The notes below the pieces were generated by a model. That model was not told the origin of the DNA. It saw only the letters and a list, made by a program, of their open reading frames with translations, and did no database searches. A stretch of 64,000 nucleotides of DNA from Acidimicrobiia bacterium (GTDB lineage Bacteria > Actinomycetota > Acidimicrobiia > Spongiisociales > ZC4RG35), in contig DATABS010000013.1 of NCBI GenBank assembly GCA_036259475.1, forward strand, positions 51,430-115,429, read 5' to 3'. The first letter of the stretch is position 1. Every line of letters begins with the position of its first letter. Made by a program: the position numbers and the translations under genes. Below, in pieces: positions 3,267 to 47,602 of the stretch.

Positions 3267-3628
<362 letters not shown>

Positions 3629-7954: not shown

Positions 7955-8237
7955 CGCGCCCCGAGGCTCGGATCTTCGCTCTAGGTAGGCTGGACGAGTG
8001 GCAGTGGCATTGCTGCCGGTCGATTGGCACGCATTCCGTCGGCCCGGGTCGGTAAGTACCAGGTTGGCTAGAAACCACTTGGACCCGGCCGGAGGTGCCG
8101 GCCGCGTTCCGCGAGCATTCCGCGGGAGGGTCGGGAAAAGGCGGTATACCTGTAGAACGTCGTAGAACTATCGAGAAGGTGTTTTCTCGGTCAGAGCAAA
8201 ATTACGGCGCGTTTCCCCTGGTAGTCGTATATCTGAT

Positions 8238-8265
8238 GACAGAATCCGGCTTACAGGGGGACTCG
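8238..8265 (+). repeat. attR-like core; displaced copy of the rnpB 3' end
   Basis: GACAGAATCCGGCTTACAGGGGGACTCG, one C-to-G difference from 3601-3628. Confidence 0.92.
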
Positions 8266-8271
8266 TAGCGT

Positions 8272-9868: not shown

Positions 9869-10339
9869 GTGAACGTCACCCAAACGATCGAGGAGCTGGT
9901 CGAGCGGCTCGACCGTTCCGTCACCGGCATCACCCGTAGAGCCGCCATTCGCCGCCTCTACCGGCGTCTGGCCTCGGTGGCCGGCACGGAAGTGGAACGT
10001 TCCTCCTATCTGGTGCTCAAGCAGCTCGTCGCCGACGGGCCTACCCGAATCACCGACCTCGCTCATGAGCACGGGGTCGAACCTTCGACCATGAGCCGCC
10101 ACACGAGCGGGCTGGAGGAATCAGGGCTGGTGGTGAAGCGAGCCGATCCGTCCGACCGCCGGGTGGCGCTGGCGGAGGCCACTGGCAAAGGGGCCAGTGT
10201 GGTGGAGAAGGTGGAGGCTGAGCGACACCGGATATTCACCGCCATCCTCTCGCGCTGGGATCCCTCCGACGCCGCCCGCTTCGTCGACCTCATCGAACGG
10301 TTCGACGCCGACGTCACCGACCTACTGCAGCAACCATGA
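9869..10339 (+). CDS. MarR-family regulator
   Basis: ITDLA..HGVEPSTMSRH..LEESGLV.KRADPSDRR; overlaps the MFS start. Confidence 0.92.
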   Translation: MNVTQTIEELVERLDRSVTGITRRAAIRRLYRRLASVAGTEVERSSYLVLKQLVADGPTRITDLAHEHGVEPSTMSRHTSGLEESGLVVKRADPSDRRVALAEATGKGASVVEKVEAERHRIFTAILSRWDPSDAARFVDLIERFDADVTDLLQQP

Positions 10340-13885: not shown

Positions 13886-14680
13886 ATGTCACCCTCCGAC
13901 AGACCTTCAGGTCGCCCCCGCCTCGTTTTCGGCGACGACGGTGCGCCGCCGGCTGACACGGCCTGGCGCTGGCTGACCTCCCAGGAGTGGTCGGGATGGG
14001 ACATCGAAGTGATGACTGCCGACACCGATGACACCCGCGTCAAATGGGGTGAGCCTCCGGCCGTCGAGGAGTGGACACCCACGTGGGGCAGATCCGAAGC
14101 TATTCCCGGCGCGGTGGCCGTGCGGTTTCTCAAGGCAGCCACAGATCCCAGAGCCATGCTGGCCGATCGGGAAGACGCCGATGTCATCCTCCTCGGTCTG
14201 AGTGCCCACAGCATGCTGCGAGGCATGGTGACCGGGAGCACAACGGAGTGGCTCCTCCACCACCCACCATCGCCGCTGGTCGTGGCCCAAAGCCCCGAAC
14301 AGGTGAACAAGGTCACTGTGTGTGCGGACGGATCGACCCACTCGCGAGCCGCTCTCGGCGCTTTCACCGCTTTGCCGCTGGCGTCGGAGACCCGGGTGAC
14401 CGTCCTGGCGGTCGACGACGGACGCACCGACGCCCGCCACGCCGCTCAGGAGGCGGCGGCGCTGCTGGACGGCAAGGTGCGAGAGGTGAGCATGGTCGTG
14501 GTTGAAGGCCAGCCGACCACCGTGATCCTCGAACAGGTGGAAGAGAACTACTCCGAACTGGTCGTCCTGGGGACGCGGGGACTGACCGGCTGGCAACGGC
14601 TCGTGCTTGGATCCACTGCTTCGGCGGTGGTCCGGGGGGTCGCCTGCACCAGCCTCGTTGCCTCCGCCGACATGGGTTAA
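13886..14680 (+). CDS. Tandem universal stress protein
   Basis: GSTTEWLLHHPPSPLVV and VVLGTRGLTGWQRLVLGSTASAVV. Confidence 0.88.
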   Translation: MSPSDRPSGRPRLVFGDDGAPPADTAWRWLTSQEWSGWDIEVMTADTDDTRVKWGEPPAVEEWTPTWGRSEAIPGAVAVRFLKAATDPRAMLADREDADVILLGLSAHSMLRGMVTGSTTEWLLHHPPSPLVVAQSPEQVNKVTVCADGSTHSRAALGAFTALPLASETRVTVLAVDDGRTDARHAAQEAAALLDGKVREVSMVVVEGQPTTVILEQVEENYSELVVLGTRGLTGWQRLVLGSTASAVVRGVACTSLVASADMG

Positions 14681-14845: not shown

Positions 14846-15868
14846 ATGCTCAACCTCTCAATGACACCGCTCTCCGTCCTAGCAGCAGACGAACCTGCCG
14901 CCGGCTCGTTCGCCAGCTTCGATGTCCCCGGCTGGGTTTGGGTGACCTTCCTCATCGGAGTCGCCGTCCTGCTGATGGTCGACCTGCTCCTCGTTCACCG
15001 ACGGCCTCACGTCATATCGTTCCGGGAAGCGGCTATCGAGTCCTCGATCTGGATCGCCCTCGGCCTCTCCTTCACGCTGGTGATGCTGGTGTGGCAAGGG
15101 GGCGGCGCCGCCGGAGAATACCTGGCCGGCTACCTCATAGAGAAGAGCCTGTCGGTCGACAACGTCTTCGTCTGGGCGGTGATCCTCAGCTACTTCGCCG
15201 TACCGGCCGAGTATCAGTTCCGGGTCCTCTTCTGGGGCGTGTTCGGAGCGCTGGTCTTGCGGGCGGTCTTCATCTTCGCCGGCGTGGCGCTGATCGAGCA
15301 GTTCGACTGGATCCTGTATGTCTTCGGCGCTTTCTTGATCTTCACCGCCTTCCGGATCGCCCGGCATGAGGAAGCCGAGATCCACCCCGAGGACAACCCG
15401 GTTCTCAAGTTGTTTCGCCGGGTCGTGCCTTCAAGCACCGAATACGACGGCCAGAAGTTGTTCACGCGCCGCGCCGGCCGGCTTCTCGCCACTCCCCTAT
15501 TCGCAGTCCTGGTGTTGATCGAGAGCACCGACGTCGTCTTCGACGTCGACTCCATCCCCGCCATCCTCGCCGTCAGCCGGGAGCCCTTCATCGTCTTCTC
15601 GTCGAACGCGTTCGCCATTCTCGGATTGAGAGCCCTCTATTTCCTGTTGGCCGGCATGGCTGGACGGTTTCGGTATCTCAACCTGGGCCTCGGGGTGATA
15701 TTGGCCTTCGTGGGCGTGAAGATGGTCATCGCCGAGTGGTACCACATGCCGATATGGCTCAGCCTCACGGTTATCGCGGTGGTCCTGACCGTCACTATCG
15801 TCGCCTCGCTCCGCGAGGAACGCCGGGAGAATGCGACCTCCGACGCTCCCACCGCGGCGGATACGTAA
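14846..15868 (+). CDS. terC: TerC/Alx-family membrane protein (Mn2+ homeostasis)
   Basis: YLIEKSLSVDNVFV, RVLFWGVFGALVLR, DVVFDVDSIPA, NAFAILGLRALYF. Confidence 0.94.
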   Translation: MLNLSMTPLSVLAADEPAAGSFASFDVPGWVWVTFLIGVAVLLMVDLLLVHRRPHVISFREAAIESSIWIALGLSFTLVMLVWQGGGAAGEYLAGYLIEKSLSVDNVFVWAVILSYFAVPAEYQFRVLFWGVFGALVLRAVFIFAGVALIEQFDWILYVFGAFLIFTAFRIARHEEAEIHPEDNPVLKLFRRVVPSSTEYDGQKLFTRRAGRLLATPLFAVLVLIESTDVVFDVDSIPAILAVSREPFIVFSSNAFAILGLRALYFLLAGMAGRFRYLNLGLGVILAFVGVKMVIAEWYHMPIWLSLTVIAVVLTVTIVASLREERRENATSDAPTAADT

Positions 15869-15892
15869 GCGCCGGCACCGTCTTCGCTGAAT

Positions 15893-15919
15893 TTGCAAAA
15901 ACTAGCGTTGTGCTATCCT
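15893..15919 (+). promoter_or_regulatory. Sigma70-type promoter, TTGCAA ... TGnTATCCT (extended -10)
   Basis: TTGCAA 15893-15898, TG 15911-15912, TATCCT 15914-15919; spacer is short (15 nt). Confidence 0.6.
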
Positions 15920-15925
15920 GAGGCA

Positions 15926-16045
15926 GCAGCGGGGAGCCGGTTTCCCCACCACACCGGTGAGCCCGAGAGCGTCCAGGCGTACCCTCCTCCCCGATCTTCG
16001 GATCGGATCCTCTCCGCCTCTCTCCCGCTCTCGGGCTTCCCCGCT
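15926..16045 (+). ncRNA. Candidate structured small RNA (or otsA leader) with CU-rich loops
   Basis: Five nested stems including a perfect 12 bp helix and a cUUCGg tetraloop; begins about 7 nt after the -10 box. Confidence 0.6.
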
Positions 16046-16083
16046 ACCAGGGTTAAGGTCGGCGTAATGAGTATCTCACTCCC

Positions 16084-17460
16084 ATGACCGACTCGTCATC
16101 ACGCCTTGTCGTAGCGGCGAATCGCCTACCCGTTCGATGGGATTCCGACGACCGGCGCTGGGTCACCAGCCCGGGCGGTCTGGTTTCGGCCCTGGTTCCG
16201 ATCCTCCAGGAACGGGGCGGAGTTTGGGTCGGTTGGAACGGCTCGGTCGGAGGCGAATCTGAGCGATTCACGGCCGACGAGATCGACAACCTGTCCGTGC
16301 CTCTCGACGAGGAACAGGTCAACGACCACTACTACGGCTTTTGCAATGGCACGATCTGGCCCCTGTATCACGACGCCATCCGTCCCCCGGAATTCCATCG
16401 TCACTGGTGGCGCAAGCATGCCGAGGTCAACCAGCAGTTCGCCGACGCCATCATTTCGGTCTGCCGACCGGGTGACACCATCTGGGTACACGACTACCAG
16501 CTGCAGTTGGTGCCTGAAATGGTCCGACAGCACCTCCCAGGCAACCGGATAGGCTTCTTCCTCCACATCCCGTTCCCTCCGCCCGAGATATTCGAGCGGC
16601 TTCCGTGGCGGCGCCAGATCCTCGAAGGACTCCTCGGTGCCGACTACATCGGCTTTCAGACCCGCAGAGCAGCACTCAACTTCGCCGCCTCGGCTCGCGA
16701 GTTCGCCGGAGCCCGCGGCCCTGCCGCCTCGATGCGCTACGCCAACCGGGAGGTGAGGGCCGAGCCGGTCCCCATCGCCATAGACACGGCTCACTACGCC
16801 GGAGCCGCGTCTGACCTCTCGGTTCAGCGGCTCGGGGCCGAGCTCAGACGCGATCTCGGTGACCCCCCGACCATCATTCTGGGGGTCGATCGTCTGGACT
16901 ACACGAAAGGAATCGACCTTCGGCTTCGAGTGCTCGAGACGTTCTTCGACGAGCATCCCGAGCTGATCGGCAAGGTCTCACTCGTTCAGATTTCGGTGCC
17001 CAGCCGCGAGGATGTGGACGAATACCAGGAGATCCGCCGCCAGGTCGAAGAGATGGTCGGTCGGGTGAACGGAAGATTCGCCCAGGCCGGGTGGACGCCG
17101 ATCCACTACGTGTACCGCTCGATCCCCTTCGAAGAGCTCATCGGCGCCTATCTCACCGCCGACGTGATGCTCGTGACGCCGCTCCGCGACGGCATGAATC
17201 TGGTTGCCAAGGAGTACATCGCCACCCGGGTCGACGACTCGGGCGTCCTCATACTCAGCGAGTTCGCGGGCGCTGCCGAGCAGCTCGAGGAGGCGCTGAT
17301 AGTCAATCCATACGACCTCGATGCACTCTCGGCGACAATCCATCAAGCGGTGACAATGGGAATCGAAGAGCAGCGCCGGAGGATGCGGCGTCTTCGCCGC
17401 AAGGTCACTCGTTGGGATGTTCACAGCTGGGCGCGCCACAACCTCGAAGAGATCGCCTGA
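16084..17460 (+). CDS. otsA: Trehalose-6-phosphate synthase (GT20)
   Basis: [58 protein letters not shown]; a glucosylglycerol-phosphate synthase cannot be excluded. Confidence 0.9.
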
Positions 17461-17481: not shown

Positions 17482-18162
17482 ATGTGTGGTCGCTTCGCCC
17501 TGACCGGCGACATCGATTTCTACCGCGGCTACTACGGCGTAGACGAGGTGACGAGCGAGTCGCTCGATCAAAGCTGGAACGTGGCTCCCACAGATGAGTC
17601 GTACGTGGTCGCCGAGAAGGATGACAAGCGCCTCCTGGGCAAGATGCCGTGGGGCCTCATTCCCTACTGGGCCGAGGACGACCGGACCATCCACATCAAC
17701 GCTCGAATCGAGACCGTGGCAACCAAGCCCGCCTTCAAACGGGCGCTGTCCCGCCACCGCTGCCTGATCCCCGCCGACGGCTTCTACGAGTGGGAGCCCA
17801 AGGAAGAGGGCCGAACCCCCCACTGGGTGTATCGGGCGGACGGCCACCCGATGTCGTTCGCCGGCATATGGGCCGCCTGGAAAGACCCGGCAACCGAACA
17901 ATGGACCCGGCGGTTCTCGATTCTCACCACCAAGGCGGAAGGGCCGATCGCCACGATCCACGACCGCATGCCGGTGATCCTAGACGACGACGTGTGGGAC
18001 GCCTGGCTCGACCGTGACCTCGAAGACCCCCGAGCTGCTCTCGACCTGATCCAGCTTCTGGACCCGGACCTCATCATGGAACACGCCGTCTCCTCCCAGG
18101 TCAACAGCGTCCGCAACAACTCCCCCGACCTGACCACCCCAACCAAAGAAACCCTCTTCTAG
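17482..18162 (+). CDS. SOS response-associated peptidase (SRAP/HMCES)
   Basis: MCGRF N-terminus, INARIET, RCLIPADGFYEW, IHDRMPVIL. Confidence 0.96.
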   Translation: MCGRFALTGDIDFYRGYYGVDEVTSESLDQSWNVAPTDESYVVAEKDDKRLLGKMPWGLIPYWAEDDRTIHINARIETVATKPAFKRALSRHRCLIPADGFYEWEPKEEGRTPHWVYRADGHPMSFAGIWAAWKDPATEQWTRRFSILTTKAEGPIATIHDRMPVILDDDVWDAWLDRDLEDPRAALDLIQLLDPDLIMEHAVSSQVNSVRNNSPDLTTPTKETLF

Positions 18163-38376: not shown

Positions 38377-38447
38377 GTGTGGGGGGTACTCCCCCCGCAC
38401 CCCCCACGGCTCCTCGTCGTGCGGTGGTTTCGTGGTCGGGGCCGTCC
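38377..38447. repeat. About 70 bp dispersed palindromic repeat, copy 1
   Basis: TGTGGGGGGTACTCCCCCC.CACCCCCCACGGCT...GTGGTCGGGGCCGTCC shared with 47346-47419 and 47453-47527. Confidence 0.8.
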
Positions 38448-38547
38448 CCCTTACGCGGATCGGATCGCGTCGAGAGTGCAGATCTGTGGCTCACAGCATG
38501 CTCACTGCCCGCTCGTCGCCGAGACGTCCGATTCGGAGACGGATTGT

Positions 38548-38584
38548 CTTCCGACTTCCGACTTCCGACTCATGACTTCCGACA
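38548..38584. repeat. Heptamer tandem repeat (CCGACTT)n
   Basis: CTTCCGACTTCCGACTTCCGACTCATGACTTCCGAC. Confidence 0.8.
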
Positions 38585-47345: not shown

Positions 47346-47527
47346 GATTATGTGGGGGTACTCCCCCCACACCCCCCACGGCTGCCCGTGGCAGAGCGGG
47401 TCGGTGGTCGGGGCCGTCCGGCCTCGGTTGTTCGTTCTTGGGTGGTCTGTTTGATTATGTGGGGGGTACTCGCCCAACACCCCCCACGGCTGCCCGTGGC
47501 AGAGTGGGTCGGTGGTCGGGGCCATCC
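47346..47527. repeat. Two tandem copies (47346-47419, 47453-47527) of the ~70 bp palindromic repeat
   Basis: GATTATGTGGGGGTACTC...GGTGGTCGGGGCC repeated with few differences. Confidence 0.85.
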
Positions 47528-47550
47528 AGCCGGGTTCATCTCACCCGAAG

Positions 47551-47602
47551 CCGACTTCCGACTTCCGACTTCAAACTTCCGACTTTCGACCCCGACTTCC
47601 GG
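47551..47602. repeat. Heptamer tandem repeat (CCGACTT)n
   Basis: CCGACTTCCGACTTCCGACTTCAAACTTCCGACTTTCGACCCCGACTTCC. Confidence 0.8.

Follow-up and report, generated by a model that had tools for sequence, protein, structure and literature searches.

We found that a 118-nucleotide (nt) element situated between the genes terC and otsA of an Acidimicrobiia bacterium, in a 64,000-nt stretch of DNA (below, the window is this whole stretch), is an RNA structure under selection on the plus strand, has its own promoter and makes the 5' end of transcripts entering otsA. Pyrimidine-rich loops, similar to the mRNA-docking sequence of the ribosome, are probably its means of controlling otsA or other genes. 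We class the element as a new RNA family, though one of a known general kind. A first-pass annotation, made from the letters of the window, had proposed a novel plus-strand structured RNA with its own promoter at this site. The proposal was borne out by the lack of an Rfam match, the single copy, the covariation among relatives and the RNA contigs that start at the predicted site. Soil and compost harbour many Acidimicrobiia, nearly all of them uncultured; the case for the element has strong comparative support, and in natural communities its expression is high.

The alignment and covariation set comprised 12 sequences, namely the window and 11 other Acidimicrobiia loci. These 12 copies correspond to nine species representatives of GTDB, two metagenome contigs (L192 and L194) and the window. 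The related loci are designated by L-numbers (L001–L008, L192, L194, L272) and the metatranscriptome runs by X-numbers. The RNA data were assembled Logan contigs from mixed communities with flat, strand-blind mean k-mer depths, and the figures derived from them are indicative. Detailed placement of RNA contigs was made for L002-, L004- and L005-like strains. Promoters P1 and P2 are distinct from helices P1 and P2 of the RNA element.

The helices and unpaired stretches described in the first-pass annotation were returned by RNAfold as the exact fold. A junction closed by helix P1 carries hairpin P2 and a long arm, P3-P4-P5, so that the five helices make a branched structure with the following parts:

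15928–16045, plus strand: structured RNA element, 118 nt (RNAfold and covariance model).
15928–15935 and 16038–16045, plus strand: helix P1, the closing stem of the junction, AGCGGGGA paired with TCCCCGCT.
15937–15941 and 15953–15957, plus strand: helix P2, CCGGT paired with ACCGG, a hairpin with the loop TTCCCCACCAC.
15942–15952, plus strand: P2 hairpin loop, 11 nt, C-rich (RNA UUCCCCACCAC), its CCCACCA core conserved in the alignment.
15960–15971 and 16026–16037, plus strand: helix P3, a perfect 12 bp, AGCCCGAGAGCG paired with CGCTCTCGGGCT.
15975–15979 and 16015–16019, plus strand: helix P4, AGGCG paired with CGCCT.
15980–15990, plus strand: internal-loop strand J4/5, TACCCTCCTCC (RNA UACCCUCCUCC), near-invariant in the 12 sequences.
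15983–15991, plus strand: nonamer CCTCCTCCC (RNA CCUCCUCCC) inside J4/5, similar to an anti-Shine-Dalgarno (anti-SD) sequence.
15991–16006, plus strand: helix P5, CCGATC-TTCG-GATCGG, stem invariant and loop variable.
16007–16014, plus strand: internal-loop strand J5/4, ATCCTCTC (RNA AUCCUCUC).
16020–16025, plus strand: strand J4/3, CTCTCC (RNA CUCUCC), unpaired.
16007–16025, plus strand: pyrimidine-rich 3' side of the arm, made of J5/4, the 3' strand of P4 (CGCCU) and J4/3.

The C/U loop sequence of the element reads CCUCCUCC. The minimum free energy of the plus strand was -60.3 kcal/mol (z -3.81), and none of 200 shuffled sequences was as stable (RNAfold). The helices are GC-rich, with the 5' end of the RNA paired from nucleotide 1, and in all 12 folds of the full leader the element made a separate 5'-terminal domain. 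The minus strand folded slightly better still (z -4.6), and the strand was thus left undecided by folding energy alone, because both strands fold well. As a side observation, three GATC sites are present at 15993–16009, in the P5 stem and the GGAUCC that follows it, and the P5 stem is a perfect palindrome at the level of DNA.

The identity of the element copies to the window copy was 75–96%, while the first 450 nt of otsA past the AANR motif showed 67–77% identity, with 44–59% at third codon positions. Judged by these identities, strong purifying selection acts on the non-coding DNA of the element. The collection of terC-otsA homologues, which the first-pass annotation had put forward as a source of covariation, showed double-sided changes in 12 pairs, and 96.3% of cells were paired, the alignment of the 12 sequences being one fitted to the covariance model. 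None of 500 shuffles matched these values, and slid-alignment controls had only 37–50% of cells paired. The compensatory changes were located in helices P1, P2 and P3. Helices P4 and P5 were constant save for one pair each (six of the seven pairs of helix 5 never vary), and the internal-loop strands between them were near-invariant. The P5 hairpin loop, the 3-nt bulge and the P2-P3 linker varied freely. The most constrained parts were therefore the distal module, P4-loop-P5, and the CCCACCA loop, and the conserved unpaired nucleotides were almost only C and U. The first-pass annotation had called every unpaired stretch CU-rich; such stretches are indeed present, but the TCC bulge counted among them is not conserved (CCA, AA, CAA, UCA, AUU, ACA and AUA in relatives). 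The nonamer CCUCCUCCC is kept in 10 of the 12 sequences, while L007 and L272 lack one or two of its bases, and the nonamer region is complementary to the GGAGG-type Shine-Dalgarno (SD) sequences that precede genes in the window.

The strand of function was settled by wobble pairs. We counted 28 G-U cells versus 10 A-C cells, the latter mostly in the outermost pairs of the model, upstream of the transcript start; since G-U wobbles fit the plus strand only, the functional strand is the plus strand. A minus-strand RNA was rejected, as the G-U pairs would become A-C mismatches, with promoter and gene orientation opposite. The cUUCGg loop, which had been offered earlier as support for the plus strand, does not carry this argument, the loop being unconserved (UACG, UCCG, CACAU and CAAG in relatives).

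The extended -10 box that the first-pass annotation had placed before the element is there, and it is conserved in most relatives. A generic promoter scan missed it with a score of 8/12. The promoter and start site are as follows:

15892–15919, plus strand: promoter P1, made of a -35-like TTTGCA (15892–15897), a 16-nt spacer with a conserved CTAGC, and TG-c-TATCCT (15911–15919).
15911–15912 and 15914–15919, plus strand: extended -10 box, TG and TATCCT.
15925 or 15928, plus strand: transcription start at an A, placed by homologous contig starts in relatives.

The consensus of promoter P1 in relatives was TTTGCA-16-TGcTATCaT, with TTTGCA, CTAGCG and TGCTATC near-invariant in most of them and weaker in L192, L272 and L008. 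The DNA further upstream was not conserved. A transcript from this promoter had been predicted, and RNA contigs of the relatives do begin at the predicted A's, 5–9 nt past the -10 box, within cAGCAGCGGGG, over four runs and three species. For example, contigs of L002 start at 2307 (X34, with zero coverage over 200 nt upstream), 2308 (X49) and 2304 (X47). In X31 the contig start at L005 2283 is the same as that at L004 2302, and in X35 the start is at L004 2299. The step in depth at the start was from 17 to 230 in X49 (L002-like), from 336 to 872 in X35 and from 44 to 138 in X30. A rise in depth within the 3' end of terC (L005, about 2065) was rejected as a start site, being explained by a stretch identical in L003, L004 and L005 that shares k-mers. 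Element RNA was found in compost, soil and manure metatranscriptomes, and it is abundant in compost and soil communities.

Most of these transcripts continue into otsA, which makes the element mainly a domain of a 5' leader. Single contigs span the start site, the element, the spacer and about 290 nt of otsA (X34, L002 2307–2787), and other contigs run from inside the element across the unconserved spacer into otsA (L005 2379–2740, L004 2398–2740, L002 2385–2790). Contig continuity into otsA was seen in 3/3 relatives, and contigs extended past the element in four further soil, manure or unlabelled runs. The depths of the 3' unitig of the element and of the downstream contigs, the latter summed over L004-like and L005-like strains, were:

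X31: element 1128, downstream 617.
X35: element 1294, downstream 975.
X29: element 499, downstream 177.
X30: element 152, downstream 340.

Downstream contigs thus had 35–75% or more of the element depth. A large excess of the element over downstream RNA was rejected, since it came down to 1.3–2.8-fold once the L004-like and L005-like contigs were summed, and a short discrete species could be in at most this excess (X29, X31, X35). In X30 the downstream RNA exceeded the element, which implies extra initiation after it. Further into otsA, about 240–300 nt from its start, the depth fell 3–10-fold in X29, X31, X35 and X49 and in three species (L002, L004, L005), while at the same position in X30 and X34 the fall was only 1–1.75-fold. 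In the window this position corresponds to about 16320–16375. The difference in depth between exact-match contigs flanking the break in otsA persists despite the uncertainty of position. The fall may be premature termination, processing or an assembly effect; its dependence on the sample suggests conditional attenuation.

A search for OtsA relatives, with one genome per species, led to 80 loci. The eight closest of them (71–80% amino acid identity, all metagenome-assembled genomes (MAGs) of Acidimicrobiia) carry the element directly upstream of otsA. The covariance model found no element in the 72 more distant otsA loci (at most 61% amino acid identity), none of which has terC upstream. Three more copies were found with context-free DNA patterns, one in a further species (L272) and two in the metagenome contigs L192 and L194, again in the order terC-element-otsA. 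The most specific pattern occurred in 11 stretches of a 596-Gb collection, of which nine were true members and two were chance occurrences; the pattern matches L249 and L268, a coding region and a hairpin in a proteobacterium, were rejected. All 11 related loci have one copy each, in the order terC-element-otsA and on the same strand as otsA, and all nine carrier species representatives are MAGs of Acidimicrobiia (Actinomycetota). The covariance model scored 82–145 bits in the 12 loci, while elsewhere in the window, and across about 310 other loci, nothing exceeded 21 bits. The element is either confined to this clade or unrecognisable beyond it.

The scan against Rfam 15, which the first-pass annotation had named as a check, gave at gathering scores only RNase P in the window and left the element unmatched. 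Over 15800–16200, with E values up to 10, only chance matches were seen, namely MIAT_exon1 (E 6, minus strand) and scr5239 (E 2.3, downstream). The element core sequence is single copy within the window. The suspicion that it might be a genomic repeat (a repetitive extragenic palindrome, REP, or a miniature inverted-repeat transposable element, MITE) was rejected with one copy in 64 kb and one per contig in every relative. An intrinsic terminator of terC was rejected as well: no hairpin with a U-run was found, the stem being followed by ACCAGGG. Literature searches revealed no RNA motif associated with otsA and no regulatory RNA of Acidimicrobiia.

The interpretation of the element depends on the start region of otsA and on the genes around it:

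14846–15868, plus strand: terC, a TerC-family membrane protein (Pfam PF03741, E 2e-52), the conserved left neighbour.
16054–16059, plus strand: TAAGGT, candidate -10 box of promoter P2 (leaderless type), placed 7 nt upstream of the ATG at 16067.
16067–16087, plus strand: six-codon open reading frame (ORF) MSISLP-stop, whose TGA overlaps the ATG of otsA (ATGA, 16084–16087).
16084–17460, plus strand: otsA, trehalose-6-phosphate synthase of family GT20 (Pfam PF00982, E 1e-146), the conserved right neighbour, which shares transcripts with the element (continuous RNA contigs).

The earlier remark that otsA has no SD of its own holds for the ATG at 16084; there is, however, a second ATG at 16067 with the TAAGGT box just upstream. 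A box of the form TA[AG][GT]GT-CAG is present 6–10 nt before the first ATG in 11 of the 12 loci, and its T, A and final T are invariant, as in the actinobacterial -10 hexamer. From the sequence layout and the depth in X30 we infer that this TAnnGT box is a second promoter giving leaderless mRNA. The six-codon ORF has the same length and overlap in the window, L001 and L003–L005, and in six other loci the first ATG is in frame with otsA. The layout with the six-codon ORF looks like a leaderless start with termination-reinitiation coupling. In L002 (2429–2500) the box and the ATG are replaced by two GGAG motifs and a GTG start; because the box is absent and the GTG start is SD-led, otsA of this species must be translated from the leadered transcript. 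Elsewhere in the window, TAGTCT or TAGCCT occurs 6–7 nt before GTG at 9869, 18839 and 19963 (TAGnnT-N6/7-GTG, with crude gene calls), and GGAGG precedes several other gene starts. This arrangement of motifs suggests that the organism uses leaderless mRNAs alongside SD-led genes.

The spacer between the element and the start region of otsA, rich in C and U, measures about 8 nt in the window and exceeds 50 nt in three loci (L003, L005, L272). Part of it repeats the 3' end of the element in degenerate form, and L272 (7183–7260) has a clear 34-nt tandem duplication of this end. In L007 (2275–2345) the stop codon of terC abuts the element. Folds of the full leaders of the 12 loci contained no conserved helix from the element to the start region, and no terminator-like site or U-run was found at the element. 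That the C/U loops pair with UAAGGU, UAGGGU or UAGUGU in the start region was rejected, as there was neither covariation nor a consistent helix, and the box is better read as a -10 hexamer.

We tentatively favour the reading in which the element is a cis-acting, attenuator-type leader of otsA and a trans factor binds its conserved C/U loops, CCUCCUCCC among them. A regulatory leader for otsA was among the functions guessed at in the first-pass annotation, and it gives the best fit to the RNA data, with contigs unbroken from the start site into otsA. The element also has the position of a cis leader: it is the 5' untranslated part of otsA transcripts, on the same strand and in constant association with the gene. 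The conserved promoter, an extended -10 promoter of sigma-70 type, starts the RNA at the first base of the closing stem, and most element-bearing transcripts run through the variable spacer into otsA. In the proposed mechanism, the leader would set the share of the promoter P1 transcripts that reach full-length otsA mRNA. The element most likely works by being bound, because it is self-contained and its best-conserved parts are C/U single strands on invariant helices; refolding would not be its mode, as no pairing to the start region is conserved. The strands CCCACCA, UACCCUCCUCC, AUCCUCUC and CUCUCC would be offered on a rigid scaffold to the trans factor, the likeliest being Rho, or a G-rich RNA or protein competing with Rho. 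Primary sites of Rho bind YC dinucleotides. The sample-dependent loss of RNA in early otsA has the look of premature, translation-sensitive termination of the Rho type, and the preference of Rho for YC-rich single strands between helices suits the layout; a G-rich RNA or a protein could serve equally well. Transcripts from promoter P1, having no good SD at the start codon, would be poorly translated and prematurely terminated in early otsA. The second, leaderless-type promoter before the first ATG would probably also give productive translation in most species.

Known Rho-dependent attenuators include the mgtA and corA leaders of Salmonella, and lambda tR1 has the layout rutA-boxB-rutB. The element is similar to such systems in its C-rich, G-poor single strands between helices and in the loss of the transcript inside the first gene to an extent that depends on conditions. 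On the other hand, rut sites are normally not conserved in sequence, no alternative conformations of the element were found, and a role of Rho at the element is purely inferential.

Several observations weigh against an attenuator-type leader. Near-invariant loop sequences fit sequence-specific pairing better than the loose YC-richness of Rho sites, and an exposed exact anti-SD motif is a hallmark of trans-acting small RNAs (sRNAs). The variable spacer, together with three layouts of the start region, is unusual for a cis switch, and between the element and otsA there is neither a conserved terminator or anti-terminator nor a conserved helix that would sequester an SD. Promoter P1 is gone in L007, where the element is kept, and read-through from terC reaches the element (X35). 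The drop in otsA coincides with a conserved OtsA coding motif at which contigs break and assembly graphs branch; moreover, k-mers are shared between strains and contig ends are approximate, and the drop and the depth ratios are therefore soft.

The main rival, possible but doubtful, is that the element is a trans-acting, chaperone-independent sRNA, stand-alone or a leader fragment, whose C/U loops, including CCUCCUCCC, block G-rich ribosome-binding sites (RBSs). Read-through into otsA would then be leakage and otsA would be made from leaderless mRNA, a corollary that we hold with the same reserve. The element has its own conserved promoter and a defined 5' end, with RNA 5' ends mapping there, and its loops are near-invariant in sequence while helices P1–P3 drift with compensation. 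The CCUCC in these loops complements GGAGG-type SDs of the genome. The leaderless-type box present in 11 of the 12 loci would free otsA from promoter P1. The guess of a trans-acting sRNA, already made in the first-pass annotation, thus retains some ground in the modest excess of the element, 1.3–2.8-fold over the summed downstream RNA in X29, X31 and X35, but it lacks a terminator. A 117-nt contig in a size-fractionated soil library had a depth of 67 versus 12 for the read-through contig, with the reservation that contigs cannot map 3' ends. No terminator or U-run is there to make such a 3' end, about a third to three quarters of the transcripts, depending on the run, extend more than 300 nt further, and in X30 element RNA was below downstream RNA. 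L007 kept the element without the promoter, and otsA of L002 depends on the leadered transcript. Complementary sites were not enriched in the 64-kb window (31 found versus 33 expected), and with such a narrow distribution and strict synteny independence from otsA is not demonstrable.

Among sRNAs with UCCC loops, RsaE/RoxS and the RNAIII type of Firmicutes are discrete, terminated sRNAs that target SD regions. The element is similar to them in exposing several C-rich motifs per scaffold, and it differs in having no kinship in sequence or fold. NfeR1, a member of the cuckoo family, is linked to osmoadaptation. That family (alpha-r14, including CcsR1-4 and NfeR1/C14; PMC4615179, where sRNAs of the RsaE/RoxS type with UCCC loops are also mentioned) shares with the element the identical nonamer CCUCCUCCC, which is read there as an anti-SD and so favours the sRNA alternative. 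Some of its members are co-transcribed with a neighbour gene and some are stress- or salt-induced (PMC4615179). Still, cuckoo RNAs have two to four adjacent hairpins with the motif in each hairpin loop and no multiloop, and they belong to Alphaproteobacteria (PMC4615179), whereas the element, an RNA of Acidimicrobiia, has a branched fold with a single copy of the motif in an internal loop. Membership in the cuckoo/CcsR/alpha-r14 family was rejected on these grounds: single motif, internal loop, multiloop fold and a host outside Alphaproteobacteria.

The 6C RNA (RF01066; B11/6C of M. tuberculosis, PMC6486639) comes from the same phylum in a wide sense and is likewise small and structured, with high expression from a strong promoter of housekeeping type. 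Its C-rich single strands, as those of the element, could pair with G-rich RBSs without Hfq, and such chaperone-free action through C-rich loops, known for 6C (PMC6486639), speaks for the sRNA alternative. The element, however, has five helices and a junction instead of the 6C hairpins, and its main C-rich segments are internal-loop strands, the P2 loop being the only C-rich hairpin loop. Its RNA also runs into a coding gene, and it is known from only nine species representatives of Acidimicrobiia. No match to the 6C model was seen at E values up to 10, and, with the different architecture, membership was rejected. The first-pass judgement that the fold matches neither cuckoo nor 6C is therefore upheld, the likeness being apt and the membership failing. 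The likeness of the element to the 6C, cuckoo and 6S families is limited to the idea of an anti-SD loop only. The readings as a cis leader and as a trans-acting sRNA are not exclusive of each other.

We consider it unlikely that the element is a passive structural module, a stable 5' domain that shields otsA mRNA from 5'-end-dependent decay and senses nothing. Such a module could also act as a U-less terminator or insulator and as a 3' protective end for terC, accumulating as a decay-resistant fragment. The 5' end paired from nucleotide 1, the GC-rich helices with -60 kcal/mol, and the abundance of the element, which in most runs exceeds that of every other part of the locus, all agree with this explanation. 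So do the read-through from terC that reaches the element and the fall of depth after it in X29, which was about 5-fold for L005-like contigs alone and 2.8-fold for L004- and L005-like contigs summed. Conversely, a stabiliser or terminator needs stems and not near-invariant loops, while conservation is higher in P4, P5 and the internal loops than in the stems that give stability, and a dedicated conserved promoter is located directly in front.

It is decidedly unlikely that the element is a riboswitch, an RNA thermometer or an osmosensor for trehalose synthesis, with the P4-P5 internal loop as a pocket. Candidate ligands would be trehalose-6-phosphate, trehalose, a nucleotide-glucose or glucose-6-phosphate. 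The strict link to one metabolic gene as a 5' leader on the same strand, the conserved core of internal loops between invariant helices, and the ratio of 5' RNA to gene-body RNA that varies by sample would suit a sensor. Purines and tertiary contacts are what known aptamer cores depend on, but in the element C and U make up nearly all the conserved unpaired nucleotides. A conserved expression platform is lacking, the start codon lies outside the structure, which leaves no classical thermometer, and only 12 close sequences are at hand. Listeria SreA/SreB provide an example of riboswitches from which sRNAs are derived in the 5' untranslated region. The element resembles riboswitch leaders in being a self-folding, conserved 5' domain of a metabolic mRNA with its 5' part in excess, and differs from them in having no expression platform and a pyrimidine-rich conserved core.

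More speculative, and a long shot in either version, is a new device for trehalose control, working as a mimic of the 3' end of 16S rRNA or as the first riboswitch for a metabolite of the trehalose pathway. As a 16S mimic, the P5 hairpin followed by GGAUC-CUCUCC / GGACCUCCU would, at the same long odds, resemble the hairpin-plus-CCUCC 3' end. The mimic would titrate SDs, or a factor recognising that end, and so, when the cell meets desiccation, osmotic or heat stress, would shift the balance between SD-led translation and the leaderless kind, a consequence as speculative as its premise.

A site acting at the DNA level, a protein-binding operator or methylation cluster built on the invariant palindrome CCGATCnnnnGATCGG and the three GATC within 17 bp, is very improbable. 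The P5 stem is invariant while its loop varies, and a palindrome is a typical dimer-binding site; yet the compensatory changes and the 28 one-strand G-U pairs show selection for RNA pairing in P1–P3, and P3 arms of 12 bp placed 54 nt apart are not an operator layout. Finally, a 6S-like decoy of RNA polymerase, another first-pass guess, can be practically dismissed: only the abundance, the strong structure and the sizeable internal loop (11 x 8 nt) speak for it, while the 6S and Ms1 models gave no match even at E 10, the element is 118 nt long and branched and not a rod of about 180 nt, or of the 180–300 nt with a large central bubble expected of 6S RNA/Ms1, its loop strands are pyrimidine-rich, unlike an open-promoter mimic, its RNA continues into a coding gene, and membership in 6S RNA/Ms1 was rejected accordingly.

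Desiccation, heat and osmotic stress are countered mainly by trehalose, and otsA encodes the key enzyme for making it. If the element is a leader of otsA, it would give a handle on the switching of trehalose synthesis in these bacteria. Should it act in trans, anti-SD loops would have evolved independently for a third time, after 6C and cuckoo, here in a lineage seemingly using leaderless mRNAs. The immediate reach is limited by nine species representatives and the lack of a cultured organism.

Some other features of the window could be of interest. A gene for a universal stress protein (Usp; 13886–14680) is located upstream of terC, and a gene for an SOS-response associated peptidase (SRAP; 17482–18162) directly follows otsA, with no otsB after otsA. 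No tRNA was found in the 64-kb window. The 3' end of the RNase P RNA gene has a 28-nt copy with 96% identity (3601–3628 versus 8238–8265, 8210–8269) 4.6 kb downstream of the intact gene, and the partial RNase P match at the downstream copy is weak (22 bits). This is the pattern that integration of an element at the rnpB 3' end would leave behind; among the ORFs between the two copies no integrase was found, only a cupredoxin-like protein. An intergenic repeat of about 70 nt, GGGGGTACTCCCCCCACACCCCCCACGGCTGCCCGTGGCAGAG..., occurs in three copies (38382–38451, 47354–47423 and 47462–47531). Runs of CTTCCGA-like hexamers follow it, at 38548–38583 after the copy at 38382 and at 47555–47590 after the tandem pair 47354/47462.

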